The notes: generated by a model from the letters alone, not told the origin. Positions 6,006-36,236 are shown, counted from the stretch's first letter. The stretch is DNA of 64,000 bases from an uncultured Gammaproteobacteria bacterium (GCA_964621305.1 CAZUOM010000004.1:14209-78208), one strand, 5' to 3'. A program made the numbers and translations.

Positions 6006-7361
6006 ATGACCGTTCGCACCCGCATCGCTCCATCTCCAACCGGGGAAGATCTCCACATCGGCAATGCCTATACCGCTCTCATCAATTACGTATTTGCCAA
6101 AAAACATGGAGGTAAGTTTATTATTCGCATAGAAGATACTGACAGGACGCGTTCTGTCGAGGGATCAGAGGAGCGCATTTTAGACTCTTTGAAATGGCTT
6201 GGCATTGGCTACGACGAAGGGCCATATAGACAGTCTGAGCGATTGGCTGAATACAAGCGCATCGCCGAAGAACTGGTTGAAAAAGGACATGCATTTTACT
6301 GTTTCTGTACTCCCGAACGGCTGGAATTGATGCGCAAGGAGCAAGAATCCCGACACGAGCCGCCAATGTATGACGGAAAGTGCAAAGCACTTTCAATTCA
6401 AAATTCAAAATTAAAAATTCAAAATGGAGAGCAACACGTCGTTCGATTAAATGTTCCCGATGAGGGGACGACTTCGTTTACAGATATTATTCGGGGCGAA
6501 ATTTCATTTGAAAATAAACTTATTGACGATCAGGTGATCCTCAAGTCTGACGGATTTCCGACGTATCACCTGGGAGTGGTCGTTGATGATCATCTTATGG
6601 AAATATCTCATGTGGTTCGCGGTGAAGAGTGGATTTCTTCAACGCCGAAACATGTTTTGCTTTACCAATTTCTCGGTTGGGAGCTGCCGAAATATGCCCA
6701 CTTGCCGCTCCTTCGCAACCCGGACAAAAGCAAATTGTCCAAGCGAAAAAATCCTGTGTGGTTGAGTTGGTATAAGGAGCAGGGATTTTTGCCAGAGGCA
6801 ATCCTTAATTATCTAGCCACATTGGCGTGGGCTCACCCAGAGGGAAAAGACATTTTTTCTTTAGATGATATGATAAAACTTTTTGATCTAAAGAACATTC
6901 AAACCACTGCGCCGGTATTTGATGTCGAAAAACTCCGTTGGGTTAATGGGCAGTACTTGAGGAAATATCAAATATCAAATATCAAATATCAAATATTCAA
7001 TTTTTATAAGCAGAAATATCCGATGGGCGGAATCGAAAAAATTTTACCGCTTGTTATTGAACGGATGAAGACGCTCAAAGAATTTGACTCCCTTGCAGGA
7101 TTTTTCTTTAAGAGACCAACGGAATACGAACACCCGCTTAATCAAAAACTTATTAGTCTTGTAAAAACTACACTTGAAACTTCAGATTGGTCCCATGAGG
7201 CGATGGAAAAATCTATCCGTGCTTCTGCGGAGAAGGAAGGAATTTCTGCAAAAGATCTTTTTATGGAGCTTCGTGTCGCCACTACAGGCAAAACCGTCGG
7301 CCCACCCCTGCTTGAATCGCTTGAAATACTCGGCAAAGAAGAAACGCTTTTGCGTTTATAA
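6006..7361 (+). CDS. gltX: glutamyl-tRNA synthetase
   Basis: MTVRTRIAPSPTGEDLHIGN (HIGH-type motif), KLSKR (KMSKS-type motif). Contains two in-frame heptamer repeat tracts. Confidence 0.9.
   Translation: MTVRTRIAPSPTGEDLHIGNAYTALINYVFAKKHGGKFIIRIEDTDRTRSVEGSEERILDSLKWLGIGYDEGPYRQSERLAEYKRIAEELVEKGHAFYCFCTPERLELMRKEQESRHEPPMYDGKCKALSIQNSKLKIQNGEQHVVRLNVPDEGTTSFTDIIRGEISFENKLIDDQVILKSDGFPTYHLGVVVDDHLMEISHVVRGEEWISSTPKHVLLYQFLGWELPKYAHLPLLRNPDKSKLSKRKNPVWLSWYKEQGFLPEAILNYLATLAWAHPEGKDIFSLDDMIKLFDLKNIQTTAPVFDVEKLRWVNGQYLRKYQISNIKYQIFNFYKQKYPMGGIEKILPLVIERMKTLKEFDSLAGFFFKRPTEYEHPLNQKLISLVKTTLETSDWSHEAMEKSIRASAEKEGISAKDLFMELRVATTGKTVGPPLLESLEILGKEETLLRL
6394..6426 (+). repeat. tandem heptanucleotide repeat (AAATTCA)x4.5 in frame inside gltX
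   Basis: caattca aaattca aaattaa aaattca aaatg, encoding SIQNSKLKIQN. Seen directly in the sequence. Confidence 0.85.
6963..6997 (+). repeat. tandem heptanucleotide repeat (AAATATC)x5 in frame inside gltX
   Basis: aaatatc x4 plus aaatatt, encoding KYQISNIKYQIF. Confidence 0.85.
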
Positions 7362-8180
7362 ATAGTCTATCCAGTGCGGGTCGGTTTCGACGGTTAAGTC
7401 GAGGAATACTTTTTTATTGGTTGCGGCCTCGAGTTCTTTTCTTGCGGCCATGCCGATTTCTTTGATCATTGATCCTTTTTTGCCGATGATGATGCCTTTG
7501 TAACGTTCTTCAGAAGTTAGAATGCGAGCTTTTATATAGAGCGCCCCATTATCTCTTTCTGCAACATCATCAACAATTGCGGTGAGCTTATAGGGTACTT
7601 CGCGGCGCAAAAAGAGAAATGCTTTTTCGCGGATAAGCTCGGCCAAGTAGGTTTTACTGTCAAGGTTAAGTGTGGGGTGAGGCAGTTCTCCTGCAGCAGC
7701 CAAAGCCTTACCTTCAGGAAGATAGGAAAAGATCTTTTCTATCAGTGTCGAAACGTGCGTGCCAACAAGAGCTGACACTTCGACAACTTCATCAAGTTCG
7801 TCTTCCAGAAATTTATACTGCACACGATAATCTGGTTCCTGGATGTCTGTTTTATTGATGACGAGAATTTTCGGACAGGAAAATTGGCGGACCAAGCCGA
7901 TTGCTGAGTTCTCCTCGGACCCCTTTTTTCTGGAATGGTCGATGATGTAAAGGACGAGATTTAACTGTTTTCCCAGAAAATTTTGTCTGCTGCTAGCCAC
8001 ACCGGGGGTATCGACAAAAACGATCTGGCCGCGGTCATCCTCATAGACTGCATTAATGATCATGCGGGTAGTTTGGGGCTTGGGAGAAGTAATAGACACT
8101 TTTCGGCCCACGAGCGTATTGAGCAGGGTCGATTTGCCGCTATTAGGTCTGCCAATAAGCACAACGTAGCCGGATTTCAT
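7356..8180 (-). CDS. era: GTPase Era
   Basis: GRPNSGKSTL G1 motif, DTPG motif, C-terminal KH domain. Confidence 0.9.
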   Translation of the reverse strand: MKSGYVVLIGRPNSGKSTLLNTLVGRKVSITSPKPQTTRMIINAVYEDDRGQIVFVDTPGVASSRQNFLGKQLNLVLYIIDHSRKKGSEENSAIGLVRQFSCPKILVINKTDIQEPDYRVQYKFLEDELDEVVEVSALVGTHVSTLIEKIFSYLPEGKALAAAGELPHPTLNLDSKTYLAELIREKAFLFLRREVPYKLTAIVDDVAERDNGALYIKARILTSEERYKGIIIGKKGSMIKEIGMAARKELEAATNKKVFLDLTVETDPHWIDYL

Positions 8181-8314
8181 TTCAGATTTTGAGCACAGTA
8201 TACAATTACTCCGGAAATTCAGCGGCGTATTGCTCTGGCTTGAAAACTTTGGGTCATAATACTATTTTTTTGATTGAGCATCATAAAGAATGATTGCGTT
8301 TTTCATGGCTGCGG

Positions 8315-8348
8315 GGCTTGGATTCTCCGAATAAATTTACGCGGTAAA
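8315..8348. repeat. near-perfect 15-bp hairpin (CTCCGAATAAATTTAC-GCG-GTAAATTTTTCGGAG)
   Basis: Inverted repeat seen directly. Lies between the era start and the tRNA-Gln 3' side. Possible processing or terminator element; no T-run. Confidence 0.4.
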
Positions 8349-8402
8349 TTTTTCGGAGTGAACGGACCAAGATAAACTGATTCCCATCCTCTAGGGCCTG
8401 GG

Positions 8403-8473
8403 CTGGGAGACTTGGATTCGGACCAAGATAAACGGATTCAGAGTCCGTTGTCCTACCGTTAGACGATCTCCCA
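8403..8473 (-). tRNA. tRNA-Gln (anticodon CUG)
   Basis: Manual cloverleaf on the minus strand: acceptor UGGGAGA/UCUCCCA with U1-A72 and G73 (Gln identity elements). D-stem GUCU/GGAC. Anticodon stem ACGGA/UCCGU with loop CUCUGAA. T-arm CUUGG-UCCGAAU-CCAAG. CCA is not encoded. Confidence 0.8.
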
Positions 8474-8699
8474 GCTCAAGTCACAGCGATGGCGGGCAGG
8501 CAGAGTCCGCTGTACACGCCTCATCGGCGGGTCGCCGGAGAGGCGACTACCGTTATACGACCCCGCAAGTAGCCATATTATAGCGGAAAACGCCTCTGGA
8601 GAGAATTCGATAATGCCTTTGATATAATCAGCTTATGAAGCTCTATCTTTTCGGAGGCGCAGAAGTTCAGTTGGGGCAGGTTGATGCTCTTACGGAGTT

Positions 8700-8728
8700 C
8701 TTGACAAGAAATAATTATTTTGATAGAA
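8700..8728 (+). promoter_or_regulatory. candidate sigma70-type promoter (TTGACA, 17-nt spacer, TAGAAA) upstream of the ABC transporter
   Basis: Sequence motif only. Confidence 0.3.
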
Positions 8729-8819
8729 AATATTTCAGGTAGATAGTGGTTATTGAATACGTGAAGTGCACGATAGTGGCTCTAAAACTACCAACGCTAA
8801 AGAAAGTAAAAATCAAAGG

Positions 8820-8858
8820 ATGAAAAAAATGGTAACAAAAAAACGTCTTCACGCATAA
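8820..8858 (+). CDS. candidate 12-codon leader ORF (MKKMVTKKRLHA)
   Basis: AAAGGA 3 nt upstream of the ATG. An intrinsic-terminator-like hairpin follows. Speculative. Confidence 0.2.
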   Translation: MKKMVTKKRLHA

Positions 8859-8872
8859 CTTTTTCCAATAAC

Positions 8873-8898
8873 GCCTCCACTTTTACGTGGAGGTTTTT
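8873..8898 (+). terminator. hairpin CCTCCAC-ttttac-GTGGAGG followed by TTTTT (attenuator or terminator-like)
   Basis: 7-bp GC-rich stem plus T-run, 27 nt upstream of the ABC ATPase start. Confidence 0.45.
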
Positions 8899-8924
8899 CA
8901 TTTAATTAATTCTTGCCAAAATGA

Positions 8925-9842
8925 ATGGAACATATGATTACTCTTGATGGTATTACCAAGAAATTTAACGATCAGACCGTCTTAAATGATATAAATCTGA
9001 AAATTAATAAAGGAGAAATTGTTGGTCTCTTAGGCCCCAATGGAGCAGGAAAAACTACCACGCTTCGGATAATTGCCGGAGTATTGCCGCCAACAAGAGG
9101 CACGGTCAAAATAGATAACCTTGCACTTGAACTGGACTGGCGTCTTAAAAAAAGAATAGGCTTTCTGCCTGAAAACAACCCCTTGTACGAAGATATGACT
9201 GTTGAAGAGTATTTGTCTTTCTGGTCGGATATGAAACAGATTCCTAAAAGTAAAAAAAAGGAAGCGATTGGTTTTGTCGTTGACCACTGTGGTATTGCTG
9301 AAGTTTACTTTCGGCCAATTAGTGAATTGTCAAAAGGGTACAGGCAGCGTGTCGGTTTTTCCCAATCAATTCTAACTAAACCCGATATTTTAATCCTTGA
9401 TGAACCAACCGAAGGCTTAGACCCAAATCAAAGACAGGATATAGCGAATTTGATAAAAGATTTGGGCAAGAAACGGACAATTGTTATCTCCTCCCACGTC
9501 TTGGGTGAACTTTCCAGAATAGCAAGCAGAATGATAATTATCCATAGGGGGGCAATTGTGGCTGATGACACGCCTGACAACCTGAAAAAGATTGGCATTT
9601 CCTCACAAGTAATTGAGATTGAGGTAAAAGGAAAAAATGTTTTATCAACGCTTAAGAAAGTTAAGAGTGTTATTGAAGTTAACGAAAGAAGAAACAACTA
9701 TTATGTTCTTGAGGTTGATAAAAAGAAAGATATCCGCGAGGAGCTTTATAATCTTTCGGTCAAGAATAAGTGGACAATGCTTACACTGCTTGCAAAAGAA
9801 AGAGCAATTGAGGATGTCTTTGGGCAATTAACCAGCAATTGA
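8925..9842 (+). CDS. ABC transporter ATP-binding protein (ABC-2 exporter type)
   Basis: Walker A GPNGAGKTT, signature LSKGYRQRV, Walker B ILILDEPTEGLD. Confidence 0.8.
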   Translation: MEHMITLDGITKKFNDQTVLNDINLKINKGEIVGLLGPNGAGKTTTLRIIAGVLPPTRGTVKIDNLALELDWRLKKRIGFLPENNPLYEDMTVEEYLSFWSDMKQIPKSKKKEAIGFVVDHCGIAEVYFRPISELSKGYRQRVGFSQSILTKPDILILDEPTEGLDPNQRQDIANLIKDLGKKRTIVISSHVLGELSRIASRMIIIHRGAIVADDTPDNLKKIGISSQVIEIEVKGKNVLSTLKKVKSVIEVNERRNNYYVLEVDKKKDIREELYNLSVKNKWTMLTLLAKERAIEDVFGQLTSN

Positions 9843-9849
9843 AAAGATT

Positions 9850-12033
9850 ATGAAAATACATATTATTATAATAAGACTGGCAAAAAAAGAATTTTTCGGG
9901 TATATAAACAATGCGCTTGCTTATACCATAATAGTTCCATTTCTTCTTCTGTCTATTTTCCTTTATACGAGAACCGCTTTGGTTGGAGGAGAAGCAAACC
10001 TAAGGCCTTATTTTGAGCTTTTACCCTGGTTTTTGCTTTTGCTGGCACCTGCTTTATCCATGAAGCTTCTGTCTGATGAACAAAAATTGGACACACTTGA
10101 CCTTCTTTTTGCCCATCCCATATCTGAGCTTGAAATTGTCTTGGGAAAATTCTTAGGAGCTATTGCCTTTTTTGCCGTTATATTACTTACAACTTTAGGA
10201 TTGCCGCTTACTCTCATAGTTTATTCTCGTCCTGATTTAGGCCAGATAGCAGGCCAGTATATCGGAGCATTGTTTATAGGAGCAACATTTATATCAATTG
10301 GTATTGCCGCCTCCTCATACCTTAAAAATGTTATTTCGAGTTTCCTTTTAGGGGCAGCCACAAGTTTCGTAATGATGATTGTAGGATCTGATTTTATTAC
10401 CCAAATGTTGCCTTTTCCCTTGAGCCGTATAGCCTCAGAACTTTCAGTCATAACCCACGATGAAAGTGTCGCCCGCGGCCTCTTGGACATCAGGGATGTA
10501 TTCTATTTTATGACAGTAACGGCGGTATTTCTTGCCGCAGCAATACTTAAGCTTTCGGAACGGAAAACCGCAGAAAGGCCTGCCGAGGCAAGGAAGCTCA
10601 AAATTGCCTTGGGACTTATATTGGCAATAGGAATATTTTCCAATCTGCTTTTATCCACTTATCCCGTAAAGATCGACTTGACTCAGGGAAGACTGTTTAC
10701 TCTTTCAGAAGGAACCAAACAAACCCTCAAAAATCTTGACGATATCGTAACAATCACGCTTTTTACTTCAAGAAATCTTCCAGCCCAGATGCAACTTGTT
10801 GCCCGGGATATATCTGACACGCTTAGAGATTACGAAAAATTGAGTAAAAACGTAAATTTCAGGATAGTTTATCCGGATGAAAGTTTAGAAGGAACACAAG
10901 AGGCTCAACAGGCAGGAATAAACGAAGTCCAATTTAGCACTCTTTCATCAGGCAAATTTGAAGCCCAAGCAGGATTCCTGGGACTGGGTCTCCGGTTTGG
11001 GGACAAGACCGAGAGCATACCTTTTATTAAAGACATATCAGATCTTGAGTATCAGTTAACCCGCAGAATAAGAAAACTTTCACAAAATAAAGACAAAGTA
11101 ATCGGAATATATAGAAATGGTTTCTTGCAAAGCGAAATATTGGATAAACTTATGGAAACTCAATATAAAACTCAAAATTTAGCGGTTGACGATACCAACA
11201 AGCTAAAAGATTTAAGCGCATTAATAGCAATTGATGACGGAAGCCAGGCAAGTACCGCCTCAGCAATGATAAGGGAGTATCTTAACCAAAACGGAAAAGT
11301 TTTGTTCTTAGTAAGTGGAGTAAATGTCGTCCCGCAAATATTGTCAGCTCAAAAAAGCCAATCAGATATTCCAAGTTTTCTTAATGATTACGGAGTTACT
11401 TTAAATAAAGATTTGGTTTATGATTTGCAGTTATCTGAGATTCTTAATTTCCGCGGCCGAAACGGAAGAGGTTATCTTTCACAGTACCCTTATTGGCTAC
11501 GGGCACTTCCTGCAACAGATAATTTTTCTCCACTGGCAACGATAAAAAGCGTATCCTTAGGCTGGCCAAGCTCCGTAAGTCTATCTCAAAAAGAGGGAAT
11601 CAGCCAAAAAATACTCTTAACAACAGGAAGAAATTCCGGCAAGACTGAAAATGCGAATACAATTTCACCAGAATCTGTAAGAAACCTTATTCCAAACGCC
11701 CAAAATATTCCTCTTGCTGTACTTTTGGAAAAAGGTGATATGCGACTTATAGTTGTTGCGTCTTCAACACTAGCAGATGACCAATTCCTTGAAAATAACC
11801 CTGATAATATTGCATTTTTGAGTAACGCCATAGATTATCTGGCCTCAGATAAAGACTTGGCCGCAATTCCAGCAAAATCAACCGGACGTACGGTTTTTGA
11901 ATTCAGAAGTCCTGTCGATGTTCTGCTGGTTCAATATGGCAACCTGTTTATTCCACCCTTAACAGTTATATTATTTGCGATATTTTATCTAAGAAGAAGG
12001 AGGTTTTTAACAAAACGCAGCTATGCAAAATAA
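9850..12033 (+). CDS. ABC-2 family permease fused to a large GldG-like extracytoplasmic domain
   Basis: N-terminal multi-transmembrane region, then a ~450-aa soluble domain, then a C-terminal transmembrane helix. Immediately follows and overlaps the ABC ATPase. Confidence 0.55.
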   Translation: MKIHIIIIRLAKKEFFGYINNALAYTIIVPFLLLSIFLYTRTALVGGEANLRPYFELLPWFLLLLAPALSMKLLSDEQKLDTLDLLFAHPISELEIVLGKFLGAIAFFAVILLTTLGLPLTLIVYSRPDLGQIAGQYIGALFIGATFISIGIAASSYLKNVISSFLLGAATSFVMMIVGSDFITQMLPFPLSRIASELSVITHDESVARGLLDIRDVFYFMTVTAVFLAAAILKLSERKTAERPAEARKLKIALGLILAIGIFSNLLLSTYPVKIDLTQGRLFTLSEGTKQTLKNLDDIVTITLFTSRNLPAQMQLVARDISDTLRDYEKLSKNVNFRIVYPDESLEGTQEAQQAGINEVQFSTLSSGKFEAQAGFLGLGLRFGDKTESIPFIKDISDLEYQLTRRIRKLSQNKDKVIGIYRNGFLQSEILDKLMETQYKTQNLAVDDTNKLKDLSALIAIDDGSQASTASAMIREYLNQNGKVLFLVSGVNVVPQILSAQKSQSDIPSFLNDYGVTLNKDLVYDLQLSEILNFRGRNGRGYLSQYPYWLRALPATDNFSPLATIKSVSLGWPSSVSLSQKEGISQKILLTTGRNSGKTENANTISPESVRNLIPNAQNIPLAVLLEKGDMRLIVVASSTLADDQFLENNPDNIAFLSNAIDYLASDKDLAAIPAKSTGRTVFEFRSPVDVLLVQYGNLFIPPLTVILFAIFYLRRRRFLTKRSYAK

Positions 12034-16106: not shown

Positions 16107-16940
16107 ATGAAAAAAGATATTCTAACAGTTAAAAACTTACAAGCATCCATCGACGGCAAGGAAATCCTCAAAGGCGTTTCGTTTGCTGTGGCCTCAGGAG
16201 AAATCCACGCAATAATGGGGCCAAACGGCAGCGGTAAGTCAACATTAGCGCAGGCATTGATGGGACACCAGTCATATCAAGTAAAAATTAAAAATTTAAA
16301 ATTGAAAATTGGAAAGCAAGACATCGTTCGTCTCTCGCCAGAAGGACGCGCAAAGGCAGGACTTTTTCTTGCTTTTCAGTCGCCGATTGCGATACCTGGG
16401 GTCAGCGCGATGAATTTACTGCGTAGCTCCTATCAAGTCCTCCATGGAGACAAAGGTGGTAAGAAAAATGGTCAAGCAATTCAGAACCCAGTTCTGGCGC
16501 GACGCTGGAAGAGCGCTGATCTGGATTTGGCACAGTTTAGCCCCTTGGTTCGTGACCGTGCCCGATTTTTATCTTTAGACGAATCATTTCTTAGTCGGGG
16601 TATCCACGATGGGTTTTCAGGTGGAGAGAAAAAGAAGTTGGAGATGCTCCAGGCGTTGGTGTTAAAGCCTAAATTTGCCGTGTTTGATGAGATCGATACC
16701 GGCCTTGACGTAGACGCATTACGCTTAGTAGCGAGTGCAATTGGGAGACTCGCCAAAGAAGGGGCAGGAGTAATTGTCATTACACACTATCAGAGAATTC
16801 TAAAATATTTAAAACCAGACGTGGTGCATGTGATTGTGGATGGAAAAATAGTTGAAACCGGAGGATCGGAGTTAGCAAAAAAAATTGAACAAAAAGGATA
16901 CACATCTTATGCAAACGCAACCAATCGTCGGCGACTATAA
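16107..16940 (+). CDS. sufC: Fe-S cluster assembly ATPase SufC
   Basis: [19 protein letters not shown], Walker [12 protein letters not shown]. Confidence 0.85.
16281..16315 (+). repeat. tandem heptanucleotide repeat (TTnAAAA)x5 in frame inside sufC
   Basis: gtaaaaa ttaaaaa tttaaaa ttgaaaa ttggaaa, encoding [11 protein letters not shown]. Confidence 0.8.
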
Positions 16941-19201: not shown

Positions 19202-20399
19202 AAAAGACTTTCCGCTATTGACGAGGAAAATAAACAGCAAACCCATCGTTTATCTTGACTCGACGGCAACCTCACTGAAGCCACAGCCGGTTATCGATGT
19301 AGTAGTTAATTATTATCGCTGGTACTCGGCCAACGTCCACCGCGGCATTTACACGATTTCGGAGGAAGCGACAGAGAAATGTGAAAGCGCGAGAAAGAAA
19401 GTAGCAGATTTTATCCACGCCCCGTCGGTTGACGAAACCATTTTTACTGGCGGGACCACAGAGTCAGTTAATTTGGTCGCTTCAGGTATCGGAAAAACGC
19501 TCTCCTCCGGCGATAACGTAGTAACAACGATCATGGAGCATCACTCCAACTTTGTTCCGTGGCAGCAGGTGGCAAAAGAAAGGAGTTTAGAGTTTAGAGT
19601 TTGGAGCGTAGAGAAAGACGGAACACTAAATTTGGAAGAATTGGAGAAATTAATTACTCGAAGAACAAAAGTACTCGCAATTGCTGCTGTATCCAACGTG
19701 CTCGGGACAATTAATCCTATTAAAACAATTGTTGGAAAAGTAAAGCGTCTTAGTCCCAAGTGCATTGTTGTCGTTGATGCAGCTCAAGCAGTCCCGCACA
19801 TGCCAGTAGATGTTGCCAATTGGGGAGCCGACTTTGTGGCGTTTTCCGGTCACAAAATGCTCGGCCCTACAGGCATCGGTGTTCTGTGGGGAAAGATGGA
19901 ACGACTTGGGGAGCTTGCTCCATACCACTATGGCGGCGAGATGATTTCAGAAGTTCACGTTGATCATACGCATTTTAAAAACCCCCCGCAAAAATTTGAG
20001 GCAGGAACGCCGCATATCGCAGGAGCTATCGGATTAGGAGCAGCGATTGATTATTTAACGAAAGTTGGGGTGGAAAACATAAGAAATCACGAAAAAGAAA
20101 TTACACATTATGCCTTACGGATTTTACGCGATGTCAATATTATTGGACCAAAAAACGCCGAAGATCGAGGCGGAGTTATCACATTCACAATGAAAGGAGC
20201 TCATCCCCATGATATCGCGCAAGTATTAGACGAGGACAACATCTGTATCCGCGCCGGTCACCACTGCGCCATGCCGCTCCATGAGTATCTTGGACTTTCT
20301 GCCACAGCGCGGGCTTCCTTTTATATGTATACAACCAAAGAAGACGTTGATGCGCTGGTTGAGGGTATAGAAAAAACAAAGCGATTATTATCAAAATAA
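19188..20399 (+). CDS. sufS: cysteine desulfurase SufS (class V aminotransferase)
   Basis: PLP lysine context SGHKMLGPTGIGVL. Catalytic-cysteine region RAGHHCAMP. Confidence 0.85.
   Translation: MSKYRKDFPLLTRKINSKPIVYLDSTATSLKPQPVIDVVVNYYRWYSANVHRGIYTISEEATEKCESARKKVADFIHAPSVDETIFTGGTTESVNLVASGIGKTLSSGDNVVTTIMEHHSNFVPWQQVAKERSLEFRVWSVEKDGTLNLEELEKLITRRTKVLAIAAVSNVLGTINPIKTIVGKVKRLSPKCIVVVDAAQAVPHMPVDVANWGADFVAFSGHKMLGPTGIGVLWGKMERLGELAPYHYGGEMISEVHVDHTHFKNPPQKFEAGTPHIAGAIGLGAAIDYLTKVGVENIRNHEKEITHYALRILRDVNIIGPKNAEDRGGVITFTMKGAHPHDIAQVLDEDNICIRAGHHCAMPLHEYLGLSATARASFYMYTTKEDVDALVEGIEKTKRLLSK
19583..19610 (+). repeat. tandem heptanucleotide repeat (GAGTTTA)x3 plus a degenerate unit, in frame inside sufS
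   Basis: gagttta gagttta gagtttg gagcgta, encoding SLEFRVWSV. Confidence 0.8.
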
Positions 20400-21245: not shown

Positions 21246-22967
21246 ATGGAAAGCGTCACCTGGAAAATCGGTGGAGAGGCAGGGTTTGGCATTATGGCCT
21301 CGGGGACCATGCTCGCTCGAGCCATGAGTCGAGGGGGCTACCATGTGTTTGCCACGAACGAGTACCCCTCGCTCATCCGCGGTGGACACAATGTGGTAAC
21401 GATGCGGATTGCTACTTCTGCGTTTCACGCTCTCAACCTAGGCGTCCATATTTTGGTCGCGCTCAACAAAGAGACCGTAGAGTTTCACAAAGACGAGTTA
21501 TCCACCGGCGCTATAGTCGTCTTTGATCCACAAGACCACGCCTGGCAGGCAACCGATTTTCCCAAAAAGGCTGAACTGGTAGCCATTCCGCTTCGACAGA
21601 TGGTCGCCTCAAAGGCTGTCGATCCTGTGATGCGCAACACCATTACCTTGGGAGCTACCATAGCTTTATTGGGTAAGCCGTTTGAAGCGCTTTCGACAGT
21701 CATTAGCGACCAGTTTAAGCGAAAAGGGCAGGAAGTCGTTGACGCAAACGTTTCCATTGCCAAACTTGGCTATGATCACATCAAAGAAAAATTTCCCAAC
21801 TTGACCGGTGTGGCTCTTTCGGAAGGCAACGAGAACGGGCGCAAGCTTCTAGTCAATGGTAGTGAGGCGATTGGTATTGGTGCGGTGCGGGCGGGGCTAA
21901 AATTTGCAGCCATTTACCCCATGACGCCGATTAATTCCCTAATTACGTATCTAGCCGATCACACCAAACAATTTGGACTAGTGTATAAACAGCCGGAAGA
22001 TGAAATCGCTGGCATCAATATGGCAATCGGCGCCTCTGTTGCCGGGGTTCGGAGTATGGTGGCAACCAGTGGTGGCGGTTTTGCGTTGATGGTAGAAGGG
22101 TTATCGCTTGCGGGCATGATCGAAGTGCCATTGGTTATCGACATGGGGATGAGGGTAGGGCCTGCCACCGGCATGCCAACTTATACAGAGCAAGGAGAGC
22201 TACAGTTTCTTATTCACGCCGGACACGGAGAGTTCCCTCGGATAATTTTAGCTCCGGGTGACGCTGCGGAAGCGTATGCATTGACTATTGAGGCATTTAA
22301 TCTCGCTGACCAATTTCAAGTGCCGGTTTTTGTTCTGACCGATAAATACCTTAATGAAAGCCAGTGGTGTGTGCCGGCAAGCGAGTTTCAAAAAGAAGTG
22401 GTTATTGATCGAGGTAAACTTGTAATTACTTCAGATGAAGGTTTTAAAAGATATGATTTGACTGCGTCTGACGGCATTTCACCGCGAAGTGTACCGGGTA
22501 TGAAAAATGGTCTCTACTGGGCTAACTCGTATGAACACGATGAGGTTGGTCACGTGACGGAAAAGGCAGCCGGGCGGGCAGCTATGGTAGACAAGCGCCT
22601 GAAAAAACAGGCAGCAATAGAAAAAATCGCAAAACCTCCGACCGTCTACGGTAACCTAGATGCGCCGATTTCATTTGTCACATGGGGATCAACAAAAGGG
22701 CCGGTATTAGAGGCAATTCAAAATTCAAAATTCAAAATTCAAAATGAAACTGTAAATATCATTCATTTTTCTTGGGTGTATCCTTTCCCTTCGGCAGTGG
22801 CCGCGTTACTGGCTGGAAAAAAACGCATTATTGACGTAGAGCAGAATGCAACAGGGCAACTGGCGGCCCTTATCAGGGAGCACACAGGGATTGAGATAAC
22901 AGAGAAATTGCTAAAATACGATGGCAGACCATTTTTTCCAGAAGAAATACTTGAAAGAGTAGCTTAG
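21246..22967 (+). CDS. 2-oxoacid:ferredoxin oxidoreductase alpha subunit (fused gamma-alpha)
   Basis: N-terminal POR/KOR gamma-like domain, then an alpha domain with a GG..L..EG-type TPP region. Confidence 0.8.
   Translation: MESVTWKIGGEAGFGIMASGTMLARAMSRGGYHVFATNEYPSLIRGGHNVVTMRIATSAFHALNLGVHILVALNKETVEFHKDELSTGAIVVFDPQDHAWQATDFPKKAELVAIPLRQMVASKAVDPVMRNTITLGATIALLGKPFEALSTVISDQFKRKGQEVVDANVSIAKLGYDHIKEKFPNLTGVALSEGNENGRKLLVNGSEAIGIGAVRAGLKFAAIYPMTPINSLITYLADHTKQFGLVYKQPEDEIAGINMAIGASVAGVRSMVATSGGGFALMVEGLSLAGMIEVPLVIDMGMRVGPATGMPTYTEQGELQFLIHAGHGEFPRIILAPGDAAEAYALTIEAFNLADQFQVPVFVLTDKYLNESQWCVPASEFQKEVVIDRGKLVITSDEGFKRYDLTASDGISPRSVPGMKNGLYWANSYEHDEVGHVTEKAAGRAAMVDKRLKKQAAIEKIAKPPTVYGNLDAPISFVTWGSTKGPVLEAIQNSKFKIQNETVNIIHFSWVYPFPSAVAALLAGKKRIIDVEQNATGQLAALIREHTGIEITEKLLKYDGRPFFPEEILERVA
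22714..22746 (+). repeat. tandem heptanucleotide repeat (AAATTCA)x4.5 in frame inside the oxidoreductase alpha gene
   Basis: caattca aaattca aaattca aaattca aaatg, encoding IQNSKFKIQN. Same 7-mer as in gltX. Confidence 0.85.
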
Positions 22968-23035
22968 TAGCTTATTTTTTTCTAGCTTAGTTTTGCTAAG
23001 TTGCTTGACTTGCTAAGCTGCTAAACTTTCTATTT

Positions 23036-23955: not shown

Positions 23956-26424
23956 ATGAATACACTTAATAAATCGACAGAACACGTTTTGCCAGTCGTA
24001 CCGATTAGAGATGGCATTGTTTTTCCCGGAATGGAAATGATTCTTACGTTCGGCCGTGCACGATCTGTGTCAGCAATAGATGCAGCTCAAGCAGGCCCGC
24101 GGCGCGTTATTTTATCTATGCAAAGAAATCCAGCAATCAACGACCCGACGCCCTCAGATCTTTATACGATGGGCACTGTAGGCGAGATTGTTCAGATGAT
24201 GCGCAATGAAGGAGAAATCAATGCGCTCGTTCGGGGTATTTCCAAGGTAGAAATTCTCTCCTATGAAACCGTGGAGCCGTTTTTTGTCGCGCGAGCTATT
24301 GAGCGAATCGATTCTGTTGAAGATAGCGACGAAACGAACGCTCTTATGCGTCATTTGACCGGAGAATTACGTCGTGCCGTCAACATGGGCAAATCAATGG
24401 ACTTTTTAACGTTTATGAACGTTATGTCAGGGCTTTCTCCACTCGCTCTTTCGTATCAGATAGCCGGAGTTTTAGATATCAAGCCAAGTGAACGCCAGGA
24501 ACTGCTTGAAATATCTTCCGTACGCGAGCGGTTAGAACGGGAAAGCGGCTATTTTGCCAAAGAAGTTAAAATTCTTGAACTTGAGAAAAAAATAGCCAGT
24601 AAGACGCAAGAAAAATTTGATAAAAACGTTCGTGAGCAAGTGCTTCGTGAGCGCATGAAGACGATCGAAAAAGAGCTTGGCGAGGAAGGAGAAAATAAGG
24701 AAACAAAGGAGTTATCCGATAAAATAAAAAAGGCAGGTATGCCCACAGAGGTGTTGGAAAAAGCACAAAAAGAACTTATCCGGTTGGGACAAATGTCACC
24801 CTATAATCCCGAAGCATCGTATCTTCGAACATATCTCGATTGGCTTATCGAGATGCCATGGAATGTTTCAAGTTCAAACAATGTGGACATTAAAGCCGCT
24901 GCAGTGGTATTAGATCAAGATCATTATGGCTTGATCAAAATCAAAGAACGCATATTAGAATATCTTGCCGTTATGAAACTCCGTTCCGGCCTTACAGAAA
25001 CAGAAGCTATATCTCAATCGCAGACTGTTCAAAGCAAAGGTGCAACTGAGAAAAAGAAAAGTAAGTCAGCACCTACGATCCTTTGTTTTGTAGGTCCTCC
25101 AGGAGTGGGAAAGACATCCATTGGAAAATCGATTGCACGGTCGTTGGGTCGTAAATTCGTCAAAATGTCTCTTGGCGGCATACGGGACGAAGCGGAAATC
25201 CGCGGCCATAGGAGGACCTACGTCGGGGCACTTCCTGGGCGGATTATTCAAGGCATAAAGCAAGCAGGGACCAAAAATCCGGTTTTTATGCTCGACGAAA
25301 TCGATAAAGTCGGTACTGATTTTCGAGGTGATCCTTCTTCGGCGCTTCTAGAGGCTCTTGACCCAGAGCAGAACTTTGCATTTTCGGATCATTACTTGGA
25401 TGTAGCCTTTGATCTTTCAGATGTTTTTTTTCTGACGACGTGTAATGTTTTAGACACTATTCCGCCTGCATTGCGTGATCGTTTGGAAGTTATTCATTTT
25501 CCGGGGTATACACAAGAAGAAAAATTTCATATTGGGCAGGACTATTTAGTAGAAAAACAGCGGGAAGCTCATGGTATTCCTATCGGTCTGGTTAAAATTT
25601 CCCATAGCGCCATAAATGAAATCATTTACCGGTACACGCGGGAAGCCGGCGTTCGCAACCTGGAGCGTCAAATTGCTACGTTATTTCGGAAAATAGCCAA
25701 AAAAATTGCAGAATCCAACGGTAAAAAATTTTCCGGCCTGACCATTGGGCCGAGTGAACTTCATAAGTATCTCGGTCCATATAAATTCAGCTCATATTTA
25801 GCTGAGAAAAAGAATGAAGTTGGCATGTCGACTGGCTTGGCTTGGACAGAAGCAGGCGGAGACATTCTTTTTATTGAAGTAGCGCTCATGCCGGGCAGGG
25901 GAAGCCTGACGCTTACTGGACAGCTTGGAGATGTCATGAAGGAATCAGGTCAGGCAGCACTCTCATACGTGCGAAGCCGTTACAAAATGCTCGGGCTGCC
26001 GGAGAAGTTTTTCCAAAAACTTGACATACATGTGCATGTTCCGGAAGGGGCTGTGCCCAAGGATGGCCCGTCAGCCGGTGCAGCCATTGGTACGGCCATT
26101 GTCTCGGCGCTGACGAAAATTCCATCTCGCAGAACGGTTGCTATGACCGGCGAAATCACTCTGCGCGGTAGAGTTCTGGAAATTGGTGGGGTGAAGGAAA
26201 AAGTTATCGCAGCGCACCGAGCCGGGATCAAAACGGTGATTTTGCCGAAAAATAATAAAAAAGATCTTGAAGATATTCCCAAAAAAGTTTTAAGCGATCT
26301 CATTTTTCACTTCGTTGAACACATGGACGAAGTTCTGCGGTTTGCCTTAACGAAACCCGTGCATGAAGAAAAAGAGATCGTCGAACCAACTTTGGGGAGT
26401 CAAGCGGCACACCTTACGGCTTAA
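23956..26424 (+). CDS. lon: ATP-dependent protease Lon
   Basis: LON N-terminal domain ([15 protein letters not shown]), Walker [11 protein letters not shown]16 protease motif [10 protein letters not shown]. Confidence 0.9.
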
Positions 26425-31508: not shown

Positions 31509-31559
31509 CTTGATTTTATTAATCTTGCAGGGTAAGCGCTTTAGACGTATTCTTAAGCT

Positions 31560-32795
31560 ATGCTTGATATTAAATTTATTCGCGAAAATTTAGAGCTTTG
31601 TAAGAAGGCAGCCCTGAACAAAAATCGGGAAGTGGATTGGGAGGGATTGCTTGCGGCAGATGAAAAACGGAGAGAACTTATCGGAAAAGTTGAGTTGTTG
31701 CGCGCAAGGAGAAACGATTCAAGCGTTGAGAATCGAGAAAGAGGAAAAAAAGTTAAAGTAGAACTTAGGAAGTTTGAAGAAGAGTTGCGAGACATAGAAG
31801 AGAAATTTGAGGTACAGATGCTTACAGTGCCCAATGTGCCGGATGAAAGCGTACCGGTAGGAAAAGACGCAAGCGGGAATAAAGAAATAAAGAAGTGGGG
31901 AGGGCCCACAAAGTTTGACTTTGAATCGAAAGATCACATAGCGCTTGCCAAATCTCTTGATCTTATCGACTTTGAGCGTGGAGTAAAGGTGGGAGGCTTC
32001 CGGGCGTATTTTCTCAAAAACGAAGCGGCCCAGATGGAGCTGGCCCTCATGTGGTATACGCTCAGTAAACTTGTTGCCAAAGGCCACACTCCGCTTATTG
32101 CTCCATCTCTGGTTAAGGATTTTACGCTCGTTGGTAATGGTCAGTTTCCTTGGGGCAGGGAAGAAGTCTATCATCTTGAAAAAGACGATCTGTATTTGGC
32201 AGGTACTGCAGAAGTCCCGGTGACGGCATATTTTGCCGATGAGTTGCTCAATGAAAAAGATTTACCAAAAAAGTTTGTTGCGTTTTCGCCGTGTTTCCGG
32301 CGAGAAGCAGGGAGCTACGGAAAAGATACCAAAGGGGTCTATCGGTTACACCAATTTAATAAAATTGAGCAAGTTGTTATTTCGACCAATGATATGAACA
32401 GTTCTTTTACTCTTCATGAGGAACTCTTAGCCAACGCAGAAGAAATTTTGCAGGACCTTGAACTTCCATACCGCGTGATGCTCATGTGCACCGGAGACAT
32501 GGGCGAGCCCCAGGTGAAAAAATATGACATAGAGACTTGGATGCCCGGCCGTAAAGCCTATGGAGAGACCATGTCCAATTCAGTCATGGGTGATTTTCAG
32601 GCGAGGAGACTCAAAATACGCTACCGGGCCAAAGACGGCACGACAAAGTTCTGCCATACGCTAAACAACACCGCCCTTGCCTCGCCGCGCATCCTGATTG
32701 CCATTTTAGAAAATTATCAGCAGGCAGATGGGTCGGTAAAGGTTCCGAAAGTACTTCAAAGCTTCCTTGGTAAAGAAGTCATCCGCCGAACATGA
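31560..32795 (+). CDS. serS: seryl-tRNA synthetase
   Basis: N-terminal coiled-coil. Class II motifs (FRREAGSYGKDTKGVYRLHQF, GETMSNS). Confidence 0.9.
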   Translation: MLDIKFIRENLELCKKAALNKNREVDWEGLLAADEKRRELIGKVELLRARRNDSSVENRERGKKVKVELRKFEEELRDIEEKFEVQMLTVPNVPDESVPVGKDASGNKEIKKWGGPTKFDFESKDHIALAKSLDLIDFERGVKVGGFRAYFLKNEAAQMELALMWYTLSKLVAKGHTPLIAPSLVKDFTLVGNGQFPWGREEVYHLEKDDLYLAGTAEVPVTAYFADELLNEKDLPKKFVAFSPCFRREAGSYGKDTKGVYRLHQFNKIEQVVISTNDMNSSFTLHEELLANAEEILQDLELPYRVMLMCTGDMGEPQVKKYDIETWMPGRKAYGETMSNSVMGDFQARRLKIRYRAKDGTTKFCHTLNNTALASPRILIAILENYQQADGSVKVPKVLQSFLGKEVIRRT

Positions 32796-33463
32796 CTTGG
32801 CTCTCCTATATATTTACTCAAACGATACTGCAAACTTCCTCAAAATATAACCGCGAGATTCGGGTAAATGAGGAGCGCGGCAAGCTCAAGCTCTTGGTTA
32901 ATGGCTCCCGGCAGTCCGGTGAGTATATCGAGAAGCTCTGGAAAGAGGCATTTAAAGCATTTGGATTGCCTCAGAGCCATTTGCAAGGGGACCCCTTGCA
33001 AATTCTTGTTTTGGGTGTTGGGGGCGGGACGGTTATTCAAATGCTTAATGCCTATTATCCCAACGCTTCGATTATTGCTGTTGACATTGACCAGACCATG
33101 ATAGACATAGGGAAGAAATATTTTGGTCTGGACAGGCTTCCTAACATTTCCTTTGTCTGCCAGGATGCGGAACAATTTGTCCAGAAAAAGACGAAACGAC
33201 CATATGACCTGGTGATTGTTGATTTGTTTATCGGCACTCACGTGCCCGAAGTCGTAAGGGATGAAAACTTTTTGAAAAATATTAAAACAATGTTGATGCC
33301 TCGTGGAAGCGTGGTCATCAATTACTTACACGAGTTTGAGTACGTCAAGCAATCTGACGAATTAAAGGAGCTTCTCGAGCGTTTATTTCCTAGTGTCATA
33401 GAAAAGTTTAACTACAATAACCGGTTCTTTCTGTGCAATCCCACCCGGTATGCATTAAGTTAA
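32792..33463 (+). CDS. spermidine-synthase-like class I SAM-dependent methyltransferase (short form)
   Basis: ILVLGVGGGTVIQML...IIAVDIDQTMIDIGKKYF and DLVIVDLF resemble the PABS/SpeE core. Confidence 0.5.
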   Translation: MTWLSYIFTQTILQTSSKYNREIRVNEERGKLKLLVNGSRQSGEYIEKLWKEAFKAFGLPQSHLQGDPLQILVLGVGGGTVIQMLNAYYPNASIIAVDIDQTMIDIGKKYFGLDRLPNISFVCQDAEQFVQKKTKRPYDLVIVDLFIGTHVPEVVRDENFLKNIKTMLMPRGSVVINYLHEFEYVKQSDELKELLERLFPSVIEKFNYNNRFFLCNPTRYALS

Positions 33464-33563
33464 GCCTAGGAGTAAGAAGCGGCCGCTTTTCACTACTAGG
33501 TTGGTTTTTTTTGCTTCTGGTTGCGTAGTTTAGGTACGAAGCTTCTGGTGATACAATAAGGGC

Positions 33564-36236
33564 ATGTTTAAGTTCCTCGGAAAACTACTTGATAGTAACG
33601 AAAAAGAAATAAGTAAGCTGCGAGCGATTGTTGATCGTGTAAATAGTCTTGAGATAGAGATTAAAAAACTCAAAGACGCTGATTTTCCCAAAAAAACTGC
33701 AGAATTGCGAGAGCGCTTGAGTCGTGGAGAAATGCTTGACGGGATTTTGCCCGAAGCCTATGCGCTCGTTCGAGAAGCTGCTCACCGGACGATCGGGCAG
33801 AGGCCATTTGACGTTCAGATAATGGCCGCCAGTGCCCTTCACCAGGGAAAAGTTGCCGAGCAAAAAACAGGGGAGGGGAAAACGCTTTCAGCTACCCCAG
33901 CACTTTACCTCAACGCTCTTACAGGCCGCGGCGCACACCTTGTAACCGTTAACGATTATCTGGCCCGGCGTGACGCGGGTTGGATGGGGCCTATTTATTG
34001 TCTATTGGGGATGAAAGTCGCAGCAATCATAAGCGAGCAATCTTTTTTGTACGATCCTACCACCGACGACACAACGGCCACTGATTGGCGCCTTAAACAT
34101 CTTCGGCCAGTCAGCCGCAAAGAGGCCTATCAAGCAGACATTACCTACGGAATCAACAGCGAATTTGGATTTGATTACCTACGCGACAACATGACAACTG
34201 ATATGAACCAGCTCGTCCAGCGCGAGTATCACTTTGCAGTCATTGATGAAGTTGACTCGATTCTAATTGACGAGGCGCGTACGCCGCACATCATATCTGC
34301 CCCGGCAGCGGAAGCCACACACAAGTATTACGACTACGCCAAATTAGTTGATAGGCTGACGTCGGAGATCGATTATAAAATTGATGAAAAGTTGCGTACC
34401 GCACACCTGACAGACCACGGTATTGTCAAAGTAGAAAAGATGATGGGGTTGGGCAATATATACGAGACAGACTTCGAAACAGTTCACCATATCGAGGCGG
34501 CACTTAAAGCGAGGACCTTATTTCAAAGAGATAAAGATTATGTTGTCAAAGACGGACAAGTGATTATTGTTGATGAGTTTACTGGCCGGCTTCTGGTGGG
34601 CCGACGATTTAGCGAAGGGATTCACCAGGCAATAGAGGCCAAAGAAGGCGTAACTATTCAACAGGAGAGTAGAACCTTGGCAACCGTATCTCTTCAAAAT
34701 TATTTTCGCATGTACGAAAAACTGGCCGGCATGACAGGAACTGCAGCGACTGAGGCAGAGGAGTTTAAGAAAATTTATAACGTTGATGTGGTTGTCATTC
34801 CAACACATCGGCCGATGATCCGCCGGGATTTTGCCGACAGCGTCTATAAAACGCCGAGAGCCAAGTATGCTGCCATCGTCAATGACATAATTGAAGCCTA
34901 CAAAAGGGGACAACCTGTGCTTGTTGGCACCACTTCTATAGAAAAAAATGAGATTATCAGCGAATTTCTCAAGCGCAAGGGTATCCCACACAACGTATTA
35001 AACGCTAAAAATCACCTGCGAGAGGCTATGATCATCGCCGAAGCAGGCAAAAAAAGCGCCGTGACTGTCGCAACCAACATGGCCGGTCGGGGAGTGGACA
35101 TCATTCTTGGAGGATCGAGGAAAGAGAAATGGGAGGTGGGGGATGATAGAGAATGGAAGATGGAAGATGGCAGATGGAGAGAGCGGCACGATGAGGTTGT
35201 AAGTGTTGGTGGACTTCATGTGATAGGCAGTGAACGACATGAGAGCAGGCGCATTGATAATCAGCTCAGAGGCCGAAGTGGCCGTCAGGGCGATCCGGGG
35301 ACGAGCAGGTTTTATGTGTCTTTGGAGGATGACATTATGCGTCTGTTTGGAGGCGAACAGGTAGCAAAGCTTATGGATATCTTTAAGCTGCCTGAAGACG
35401 TGCCGTTGGAGCACGGAATGGTTTCTAGGGCTATCGAGCAGGCGCAGACCAAAGTCGAGGGCTTCCATTTTGATAGCCGCAAACACCTGGTGGAATACGA
35501 CGACGTTCTCAATAAACAGCGGGAAATTATTTACCGTCGCCGGAGAAAAATTTTGGAGGGCGAGTCGCAAAAAGAAGCCATTATTGAAAAAATTACTACA
35601 GAAATAAGGAAAGTCGTTTCGATTTATTCAGATGAAAGAGGAACAATCGAACGGGAGAAAATTGTCTCCGAATTTATCGCAATAATTCCGTTTGACCTGG
35701 CGTCGCAAGGCCAGTTTTTGAAACAACTTGAACAGTTCCATACTACGGGCGAAACGATTGAATTCCTTATAAAACTCATAAGCGATATGTATGAAACGCG
35801 AGAGAAGGAGGTATCTAGCGAGATCATGCGTCAGATCGAGCACTGGGTGAGTTTGCAGGTGATGGATAATCTCTGGATGGATCACCTGGATGCCATCGAT
35901 GATCTCCGAGAAGGCATTGGCCTTCGTGGCTATGGCCAGCGCGATCCGCTCGTCGAGTACAAAAACGAAGCGTTCAATATGTTCGAGCGACTAATCGCCA
36001 CCATCGACAGCGAAATTGTGCACAGGCTTTTTAAAGTGCAGGTGCAGCTTGCACAACCTCCAACGAACAACCCACAACCGACAACAAAAGTACCAGAAAA
36101 ACCTGTGCAAACTAAAAATAATCAACCCGTTAACCAATTACCTGTAATTGCTAAGAAGCTTGGCCGCAACGATCCGTGCTGGTGTGGAAGCGGCAAGAAA
36201 TGGAAAAAATGTCATTATCCAAATCTTCCGAAATAA
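33564..36236 (+). CDS. secA: preprotein translocase ATPase SecA
   Basis: DEAD motor domains. HESRRIDNQLRGRSGRQGDPG. C-terminal zinc finger CWCGSGKKWKKCH. Confidence 0.9.
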   Translation: MFKFLGKLLDSNEKEISKLRAIVDRVNSLEIEIKKLKDADFPKKTAELRERLSRGEMLDGILPEAYALVREAAHRTIGQRPFDVQIMAASALHQGKVAEQKTGEGKTLSATPALYLNALTGRGAHLVTVNDYLARRDAGWMGPIYCLLGMKVAAIISEQSFLYDPTTDDTTATDWRLKHLRPVSRKEAYQADITYGINSEFGFDYLRDNMTTDMNQLVQREYHFAVIDEVDSILIDEARTPHIISAPAAEATHKYYDYAKLVDRLTSEIDYKIDEKLRTAHLTDHGIVKVEKMMGLGNIYETDFETVHHIEAALKARTLFQRDKDYVVKDGQVIIVDEFTGRLLVGRRFSEGIHQAIEAKEGVTIQQESRTLATVSLQNYFRMYEKLAGMTGTAATEAEEFKKIYNVDVVVIPTHRPMIRRDFADSVYKTPRAKYAAIVNDIIEAYKRGQPVLVGTTSIEKNEIISEFLKRKGIPHNVLNAKNHLREAMIIAEAGKKSAVTVATNMAGRGVDIILGGSRKEKWEVGDDREWKMEDGRWRERHDEVVSVGGLHVIGSERHESRRIDNQLRGRSGRQGDPGTSRFYVSLEDDIMRLFGGEQVAKLMDIFKLPEDVPLEHGMVSRAIEQAQTKVEGFHFDSRKHLVEYDDVLNKQREIIYRRRRKILEGESQKEAIIEKITTEIRKVVSIYSDERGTIEREKIVSEFIAIIPFDLASQGQFLKQLEQFHTTGETIEFLIKLISDMYETREKEVSSEIMRQIEHWVSLQVMDNLWMDHLDAIDDLREGIGLRGYGQRDPLVEYKNEAFNMFERLIATIDSEIVHRLFKVQVQLAQPPTNNPQPTTKVPEKPVQTKNNQPVNQLPVIAKKLGRNDPCWCGSGKKWKKCHYPNLPK
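35142..35183 (+). repeat. tandem heptanucleotide repeat (GAAGATG-like)x6 in frame inside secA
   Basis: gatgata gagaatg gaagatg gaagatg gcagatg gagagag, encoding DDREWKMEDGRWRER, in a variable linker of SecA. Confidence 0.8.

Follow-up and report, generated by a model that had tools for sequence, protein, structure and literature searches.

Seven-nucleotide tandem arrays that appear to replace equal-length segments of essential genes in Candidatus Gottesmanbacteria and recur with different units at the same codons

Tandem repeats with a seven-nucleotide unit have been described in several bacterial settings. In the accounts that PMC4679880 and PMC4692102 give of the survey by Mrazek, Guo and Shah (2007), heptanucleotides are the commonest class among the long simple sequence repeats (SSRs) of repeat-rich prokaryotes, and slippage set by the footprint of the polymerase is proposed as the cause of their excess. 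In the Nostoc tRNA-Leu(UAA) group I intron, the P6b stem-loop contains heptamer arrays whose unit class has been replaced repeatedly and in which short insertions recur at one spot (PMC4476775). In Escherichia coli K1, the accessory, prophage-borne gene neuO is phase variable and is turned ON or OFF by cell-to-cell differences in the copy number of an AAGACTC heptanucleotide repeat (PMC3046976, PMC13001214). Here we describe six heptanucleotide tracts in a stretch of 64,000 nucleotides (nt) of DNA catalogued under an uncultured Gammaproteobacteria bacterium (GCA_964621305.1, CAZUOM010000004.1:14209-78208; hereafter the window, in which positions are counted from the first letter). The tracts, to which an earlier note made from the sequence alone had drawn attention, lie within essential genes: gltX, which carries two of them, sufC, sufS, the alpha-subunit gene of a 2-oxoacid:ferredoxin oxidoreductase (OFOR) and secA. 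The closest GltX, oxidoreductase and SecA proteins come from metagenome bins of Candidatus Gottesmanbacteria, a lineage of the Patescibacteria or candidate phyla radiation (CPR), with best non-self matches 77-87% identical, and the host is a groundwater member of that lineage. Across 8.9 kb, the window matches a second record, GCA_005239695.1, at 100% identity. The nearest other genome, GCA_016194575.1 (the same as GCA_964642005.1; hereafter genome B), is represented by loci L087, L088, L090 and L214 and is syntenic with the window across the suf-OFOR-serS-secA region.

Formally the tracts are heptanucleotide SSRs, since they consist of head-to-tail tandem copies of one short unit and exceed what composition predicts. 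As far as the published accounts of the 2007 survey go, they resemble the repeats described there in that 7-nt units stand far above other periods and are specific to a lineage. They differ in their setting: the surveyed SSRs are mainly intergenic, with coding units that are multiples of three, whereas the window tracts all lie in essential open reading frames (ORFs), have 3.4-4.9 copies, are length-neutral with respect to orthologues and belong to a CPR lineage outside that survey. The rule that units of other than a multiple of three occur mainly outside coding DNA is broken by these tracts. Their closest analogue, beside the cyanobacterial STRR heptamers, is the P6b array of the Nostoc intron, where 7-nt arrays likewise occupy a fixed position of a conserved gene and the unit is swapped among lineages, as it is at both gltX sites and in sufC. 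The analogy has limits, because in P6b two arrays pair as an RNA stem in a cyanobacterial host, whereas each window tract is a single, translated, unstructured sense-strand array in a patescibacterial one. With neuO the tracts share a 7-nt repeat inside an ORF that is translated in all three phases and keeps its frame only by three-unit steps; unlike those of neuO, their arrays are short, and because their hosts are essential and no variation in copy number was observed, they are not contingency loci of the neuO type. A literature search on heptamer or tandem repeats in CPR, Patescibacteria and Gottesmanbacteria found no report of this pattern. What is new relative to known heptanucleotide repeat biology is the combination of translation, length neutrality and repeated occurrence at the same codons, found in the essential genes of a CPR lineage.

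Tandem Repeats Finder (TRF) resolves the tracts in the window as six period-7 arrays of 24-34 nt that match their units at 88-100% (Table 1). All are encoded on the + strand within long ORFs, the reading frame stays open throughout each, and the products are intact and in frame. The glutamyl-tRNA synthetase encoded by gltX (GltRS) matches PDB chains at E = 1e-126 and SufC at E = 5e-69; SufS and SecA also match PDB chains, and the OFOR alpha subunit is identified from source names and Pfam domains (POR/POR_N). Direct reading and TRF place all six tracts where the earlier note had reported them, in genes that it had named correctly and with the period of 7 that it had given. Its figures of 3-6 copies and 21-42 nt were too generous, and the 42 nt that it quoted for secA enclose a core of 26 nt.

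Table 1. Positions, repeat structure and translation of the period-7 tracts in the window (repeat values from Tandem Repeats Finder).
Tract	Position	Strand	Repeat structure	Encoded segment
gltX tract 1	6394..6426	+	6395-6425, (AATTCAA) x4.4, 91% match, one internal C>A change	SIQNSKLKIQNG
gltX tract 2	6963..6997	+	6963-6996, (AAATATC) x4.9, 100% match	KYQISNIKYQIF
sufC tract	16281..16315	+	16282-16315, (TAAAAAT/AAAATTG) x4.1-4.6, 88-90% match	12 residues
sufS tract	19583..19613	+	19583-19606, (GAGTTTA) x3.4, 94% match; x3.4-4.4 over whole	SLEFRVWSVE
OFOR alpha tract	22714..22746	+	22715-22745, perfect (AATTCAA) x4.4, 100% match	AIQNSKFKIQNE
secA tract	35142..35183	+	core 35153-35178, (ATGGAAG)/(GATGGAA) x3.7, 89% match	DDREWKMEDGRWRE, in nucleotide-binding domain 2 (NBD2)
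weak or decayed seventh tract	36052..36085	+	CACAACC, score 33, 70% match	hypervariable SecA C-terminal linker

In an AlphaFold (AF2) model of the window GltRS, with a mean predicted local distance difference test score (pLDDT) of 83.5, gltX tract 1 is placed in helix 131-139 and the turn preceding strand 145-148. Tract 2 is predicted to fall in helix 323-333, where the anticodon-binding part begins. The SufS tract is collinear with Bacillus subtilis SufS, without a gap, and aligns to a strand-turn there. In secA, whose product was aligned with E. coli SecA, the distance between the two conserved Trp codons is exactly 21 nt. The earlier note had described low-complexity peptides at variable positions, and the sites do vary among orthologues. 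In the SecA C-terminal linker, orthologues carry heptamer-type peptides such as QTSDVRLQTS, NPTNITNPTN and QPSAISSQPSA. Rfam and tRNA scans of the window gave no match overlapping the tracts. Predicted folding of the window arrays (0 to -0.5 kcal/mol) is no better than that of shuffles, and the arrays have neither terminal repeats nor a hairpin. Programmed frameshifting at the tracts was considered and ruled out, every tract being read straight through in a single frame, collinear with orthologues.

Three further observations concern the host genes themselves. The gltX start is TTG at 5967 in the ORF list and ATG at 6006 (MTVRTRIAPSPTG) in a database protein identical to the window product. 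Two assemblies in the P0037 cluster of GltX proteins have two adjacent partial gltX calls, P0395+P0396 (Gottesmanbacteria GW2011_GWA2_47_9) and P0400+P0405, of 198+248 and 211+236 residues, a pattern that points to a frameshift or to faulty assembly. Between the alpha and beta genes of the oxidoreductase, the 69-nt spacer (window 22958-23032) contains AGTAGCTT x2.1 and a 17-nt repeat, TTGCTAAGCTGCTAAAC, x2.4.

The periodicity is specific to seven. The window contains 5 exact period-7 runs against 0.17 expected from dinucleotide-preserving shuffles, and the other periods from 4 to 15 give 0-1 each. A mismatch-tolerant scan of the window at lag 7 returns exactly the six segments of the tracts and none in 20 dinucleotide-preserving shuffles, while the remaining lags among 4-12 return 0-1 segments each. 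This specificity extends to the lineage: period-7 tracts number 9.1-9.4 per 100 kb in Gottesmanbacteria DNA (9.1 in other loci of this lineage, 143 kb in all), 3.5 in other CPR loci and 0.9 in 1,063 kb of non-CPR gltX loci, and no other period exceeds 1.6 per 100 kb in this comparison. The controls are non-CPR loci from a contig search with GltX alignment, in which CPR loci number at least about 5 among the matches listed. Loci found by seeding with AATTCAA, again among the matches listed, have a period-7 rate of 29.5 per 100 kb, where no other period exceeds 1.1, and they carry 68 further, unseeded period-7 tracts with many other units. Within heptamer-rich loci, open frames of 100 residues or more contain 57 of the 86 unseeded tracts, the coding-strand units are stop-free in 86% of cases as against 69% of random heptamers, and the sense strand is 43% A and 11% G. 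The period-7 excess is a property of the lineage or genome rather than of a single locus and reflects a shared generating process, as the earlier note had proposed in place of chance, and the shuffles, the lag scan and the lineage rates all bear this out.

Chance, protein-level selection for the peptides alone, or faulty assembly could each be offered for sequences that are A-rich and encode peptides rich in K, N, Q and I. But no tract arises in the shuffles, the peptides differ among orthologues while the periodicity of the DNA persists, and identical tracts occur in separate assemblies and samples. The assembly artefact that the earlier note had named as a possible refutation is unlikely in particular, because loci L083 and L084, which are 99.2% identical and come from different samples, show no tract difference; nor do L087 and L088. 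We regard this group of explanations as highly improbable.

Comparison with orthologues indicates that each of the six tracts replaces an ancestral segment of equal length and that none is a net insertion. Relative to tract-free orthologues or distant PDB homologues, no net insertion was found at the six sites, and the tract regions of GltRS, SufC, SufS and SecA differ from the PDB homologues in length by 0-3 residues. The YDGxC-VIRL spacer of GltX measures 18 residues in 78 of 118 orthologues, whether a tract is present or not. Both gltX sites of genome B (L214) are free of tracts, and at the first of them all 12 codons differ from those of the window, with flanks and length unchanged. At the secA site, L090 and L089 (81-87% identity) carry the non-repeat sequence SEAxWxKxExxWQKA, equal in length to that of the window. 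Equal length of tract-bearing and tract-free orthologues is thus usual at five independent sites, from which we infer that most array growth is length-neutral. An indel census against the nearest genome gave few heptamer events, as expected if overwriting is length-neutral, and a scan of 26 gene pairs for patches found 5 that are divergent and length-neutral, 2 of them heptamer tracts. These comparisons also alter the account of how the frame is kept. The earlier note had ascribed this to 3x7=21, yet no tract is a multiple of 21 nt, and the frame is kept because each tract substitutes for an ancestral segment of the same length. Of the lineage-specific insertions or replacements that the note had looked to orthologue alignment to reveal, only the replacements were found, the lengths being equal.

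Length does change in a minority of cases, and these bear on whether classical replication slippage alone could have built the arrays, by gain and loss of whole units, with separate indels making up the length and nothing copied in a length-neutral way. Ten orthologues have a GltX spacer of 11 instead of 18 residues, a 21-nt (three-unit) in-frame difference, and spacers of 15-17 residues also occur. SecA of L213 has DDREW as in the window, with exactly 21 nt fewer between the Trp codons. The serS gene of genome B (L087:20630-20652; orthologous to ~31724 in the window) contains an 18-nt heptamer-type insertion (AAATCNC x3.3) that is absent in the window and in L089, and is one of the few cases in which a tract has added length. 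Such differences are what slippage would leave, but its one-unit steps would shift the frame of essential genes, and the exact equality of length that is usual at five independent sites would need exact compensation time after time. We therefore consider slippage alone to be an unlikely source of the arrays.

The codons that carry a tract in the window carry other units in relatives. At gltX site 2, the position of tract 2, (AAATATC)4.9 in the window corresponds to (AAAACTC)n in L082 and L083, to (AGCTATC)n in L085 and to two copies of a 14-mer, AAAACTCAAAGTTC, in L001, and more distant genes have (CAAAACT)n in a GltX of 54% identity (L003) and (TCAAAGT)n in a Roizmanbacteria gltX (L007). The codons of site 1, the position of tract 1, bear AATTCAA- or AACTCAA-type tracts in L082, L083, L085 and L001. 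Such recurrence with differing units at the two gltX sites is seen at the DNA level in 8 loci. At the protein level, peptides with a periodicity of seven residues occur in 35 of 120 GltX orthologues; 37 of the 42 runs fall at the two tract sites, where 25 different seven-residue cycles are found (KVKSQKS, ISNLKSQ, FKFQISN, AQSSKLK and KYQISNI among them). In sufC, L087 has a perfect (AATATCA) x4.6 array at the same codons and of the same length as the AAAATTG-type array of the window, and each unit extends a different conserved flank: that of L087 continues the 5' TAT CAA (YQ), and that of the window the 3' AAA ATT GGA (KIG). The secA unit includes the conserved Trp codon TGG. In sufS, the corresponding codons of L087 bear a degenerate form of the tract, GAATTTA GGGTTCA GAATCTG GAATTTA; at the OFOR site, more distant orthologues have KTSNFKIKNQ-like or LQAKGKK sequence. 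Arrays occupy the same sites across genomes that are only 50-77% identical in protein.

Within the tracts, synonymous sites are conserved to a degree not seen elsewhere in the genes. The OFOR tract is identical over 27 nt in L087, with 10 of 10 synonymous sites unchanged, whereas 53% of same-amino-acid codons differ elsewhere in the gene (P=5e-4). At gltX site 1, synonymous identity to three orthologues is 10/10, 9/9 and 8/9, and at site 2 it is 19/21 between L082 and L083. Outside the tracts the corresponding values are 41-53%, with about 55% of synonymous sites differing between genomes there, and P ranges from 3e-4 to 8e-3 over the tract comparisons. The earlier note had reasoned that the same segment at the nucleotide level in orthologues would mark it as ancestral rather than a repeat. 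Close orthologues do share the tract at that level (OFOR in L087, gltX site 1 in L083), but the observation does not discriminate, because they hold it as a repeat that is maintained and not as ancestral non-repeat sequence. Since each position of a unit falls in codon positions 1, 2 and 3 in successive copies, no change at the level of the unit is purely synonymous if the copies stay alike. Homogenisation of the copies combined with protein-level selection would thus account for the conserved synonymous sites without an added function.

The same conservation could instead reflect nucleotide-level selection on functional cis-elements, the arrays being repeated 7-nt binding sites in DNA or mRNA, with one heptamer per protein domain (for example cold-shock-type oligonucleotide-binding folds), or targets of another regulator. 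The persistence of arrays at the same sites between distantly related genomes would fit such a role, and CspB is reported, in the account given by PMC4679880, to bind heptamer direct repeats. Against it, the unit varies freely at one site from genome to genome, as the many peptide cycles of GltX attest; close relatives lack the array at gltX and secA and have no compensating feature; and array position is not consistent across at least 75 protein families, nor are the strands structured. As homogenisation and protein selection suffice for the synonymous sites, we think a cis-acting role improbable.

Departures from perfect repetition point to the avoidance of stop codons. When each tract is rebuilt as a perfect array, an in-frame stop arises only for sufC, whose unit contains TAA, and for sufS, whose unit contains TAG. 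In both genes the internal departure sits on the would-be stop, AAT TAA having become AAT TTA at 16297 in sufC and GTT TAG having become GTT TGG at 19603, in the third copy, in sufS. The strain-level copy-number polymorphism that the earlier note had suggested looking for was absent from near-identical assemblies and from ten protein clusters at 90% identity; in these clusters no heptamer tract changes length, and only GC-rich mini-insertions are present or absent.

The AATTCAA unit is common to gltX and OFOR, and the earlier note had taken this as a sign of a mobile mini-repeat, for which it is weak evidence. Of the 53 heptamer necklaces that are rich in A/T (6 or more A/T, including 4 or more A), just 8 are stop-free in every phase, and AAAATTC and AAATATC belong to these. 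From unit frequencies at the two GltX sites, the chance of at least one identical pair among six tracts is ~0.37. The exact 31-nt AATTCAA array, a search pattern that imposes a 31-nt floor on tract length, is present in at least 120 metagenome contigs, and among the matches listed 58 of 83 fall inside open frames of 100 codons or more, with each of the three phases represented. The array-bearing frames match at least 75 Pfam families, including class I aminoacyl-tRNA synthetases, Mfd, TGT, PGK, TrmD, MnmA and glycosyltransferases, with no consistent position. A small stop-free repertoire and a general process explain the recurrence of AATTCAA, which is not evidence of one mobile sequence.

If the tracts spread between loci, either as a mobile mini-repeat or through ectopic gene conversion of one array by another, a single unit would also turn up in unrelated genes of one genome. 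Besides the gltX-OFOR pair, such spread is favoured by the use of AAAGTCA at both gltX sites of L092, of AAAACTC at both sites of L001 and of the near-identical AAAGTCG and AAAGTCA in L091, and by the truly mobile mini-elements that relatives hold at these sites. However, the two gltX sites share a unit in about 3 of 13 genomes, which is close to what a small repertoire would give and no clear excess, and a shared pair among six tracts is likewise unremarkable when just 8 A/T-rich units are stop-free. In addition, none of the six sites has a net insertion, the tracts have no terminal repeats or hairpin, and the units appear to be seeded from local conserved flanks. We consider spread of this kind quite unlikely.

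The mini-elements of the relatives are GC-rich hairpins of 21-42 nt, always a multiple of 3, that sit exactly between heptamer units of gltX tracts. Locus L091 (GCA_030679255.1) carries the same 36-nt element, CCTGCCCGCAATGCTACGCAAAGCGTTGCAGGCGGG, in both tracts, at 10430-10465 and 11027-11062. Site 1 of L092 (~4010-4110) has two elements, one of them interrupted by a third, and elements of other sequence are found at L085:10436-10465 (30 nt) and L083:~5650-5685 (36 nt). Of three elements tested, two have predicted folds much more stable than those of shuffles (-12.6 kcal/mol, z about -3.8). In clusters of SecA proteins more than 90% identical, palindromic insertions of the CCTGCC...GGCAGG type are present in some members and absent from others, such as GLPAGRQ after residue ~40 in P0389 and P0392 (P0325 cluster) and ARLPSPGGEANGGQ at residue ~526 in P0265/P0373 versus P0374. 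This presence and absence among such similar proteins argues that the mini-elements moved recently. A peptide-motif search for mini-elements detected none in the real ORFs of the window, and a scan of the window for GC islands returned too many ordinary GC-rich stretches to single any out. The window tracts are not mini-element insertions, given that they involve no net insertion and form no hairpin.

A fragment of a Y1 transposase (IS200/IS605 or RAYT type; PF01797) lies at a contig end in L086 (15691-15942), a relative with a mini-element in gltX, and is a possible candidate for the mobilising enzyme. Heptamer arrays may attract mini-elements, or both may merely mark permissive sites. Small dispersed repeats (SDRs), reportedly described in Nostoc punctiforme by Elhai et al. 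in 2008, are comparable with the relatives' elements, which are hairpins of 21-42 nt lying between heptamer units, nested and variably present in close strains. The relatives' elements differ from SDRs in being unrelated in sequence, in their GC-rich CCTGCC...GGCAGG form and in lying in frame within essential genes, and the window has none. Rickettsia palindromic elements (RPEs), which Ogata et al. are said to have described in 2000, are reportedly insertions of 100-150 nt with a conserved sequence, in frame in protein-coding genes. The window tracts would be similar to RPEs as selfish or neutral DNA tolerated in frame at permissive sites of housekeeping proteins; unlike RPEs, they are not insertions, and nothing in them is conserved beyond the period.

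Taken together, we consider it probable that the tracts are coding-region heptanucleotide microsatellites, made and kept uniform by a bias of the lineage (Gottesmanbacteria and neighbouring Microgenomates) towards strand misalignment at a 7-nt offset, and filtered by the constraints of frame and protein. An array would begin when a 7-mer from a conserved group of flanking codons is copied over its neighbour, at segments that tolerate change (short surface helices, turns and one strand). Copying would be mostly length-neutral, so that the ancestral segment is overwritten and not lengthened, and the likely route would be either that the nascent strand misaligns transiently and then realigns or that short patches are converted out of register. 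Continued copying between units would wipe out mutations in single copies, giving concerted evolution, and with every unit position represented in all three codon positions, protein-level selection would freeze the 'synonymous' sites as well. Selection would then purge arrays that shift the frame or create a stop, so that what survives is either a unit without stops or an array interrupted where the stop would fall. Three-unit changes (21 nt), which stay in frame, could persist, with classical slippage as the source of these occasional steps. The molecular event itself would be a 7-nt dislocation by a polymerase or repair enzyme, and the tracts would have no function of their own.

Several points weigh against this explanation. 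Overwriting by transient misalignment is deduced from end states, with no intermediates observed, and because classical slippage by one unit in any of these genes would be lethal, the path to an array of 4-5 copies is not demonstrated. A nucleotide-level function could also explain the conservation of synonymous sites, and the explanation gives no reason for an offset of 7 nt. Finally, the lack of any tract or copy-number change in near-identical assemblies and 90%-identity protein clusters implies either that the process is slow on population time scales or that its products are quickly purged.

Apart from the genes with tracts, the window is ordinary housekeeping DNA, with genes for RecJ, a class II aminoacyl-tRNA synthetase, a penicillin-binding protein, Era, the suf operon, Lon, SerRS, RuvABC, a release factor and two tRNAs. 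The RecJ gene (ORF 40-750) has an in-frame 8-nt tandem repeat, TAACAATG x3.9 with 86% match at window 570-600, which is the sole notable within-gene repeat of the window with a period other than 7. A perfect (CTT) x9.7 repeat lies in intergenic DNA at 41794-41822, just downstream of a DsbA-like gene (40984-41757). Lon protease has an 18-residue segment at window 25003-25056 that is missing from the nearest genome (L087/L090) and shows no clear period-7 structure.

If the favoured explanation is correct, mutational bias and not protein selection sets stretches of 10-14 residues in essential enzymes across a whole candidate phylum. Such patches would be non-homologous at the residue level despite gapless alignment, which would affect alignment-based phylogeny and conservation scoring of CPR proteins. 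They would also serve as a natural experiment on the tolerance of surface helices in GltRS, SecA, SufC and other proteins to arbitrary sequence. Heptamer-rich and heptamer-poor CPR genomes could then be compared directly for the feature of replication or repair that gives the 7-nt register. That tiny hairpin elements are inserted between the units also suggests co-evolution of repeats with mini-elements beyond the cyanobacteria. More speculatively, and as a possibility that we consider less likely than not, Microgenomates CPR bacteria may possess an active, length-neutral 'heptamer-writing' activity, in which 7-nt-offset templated copying by a lineage-specific replication or repair enzyme rewrites permissive segments of essential proteins, and whose arrays are preferred landing sites of the GC-rich 21-42-nt hairpin elements, possibly moved by Y1/RAYT enzymes. 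Heptamer-writing of this kind would be a protein-coding counterpart of the cyanobacterial heptamer/SDR system and an unrecognised source of protein sequence turnover in reduced genomes.

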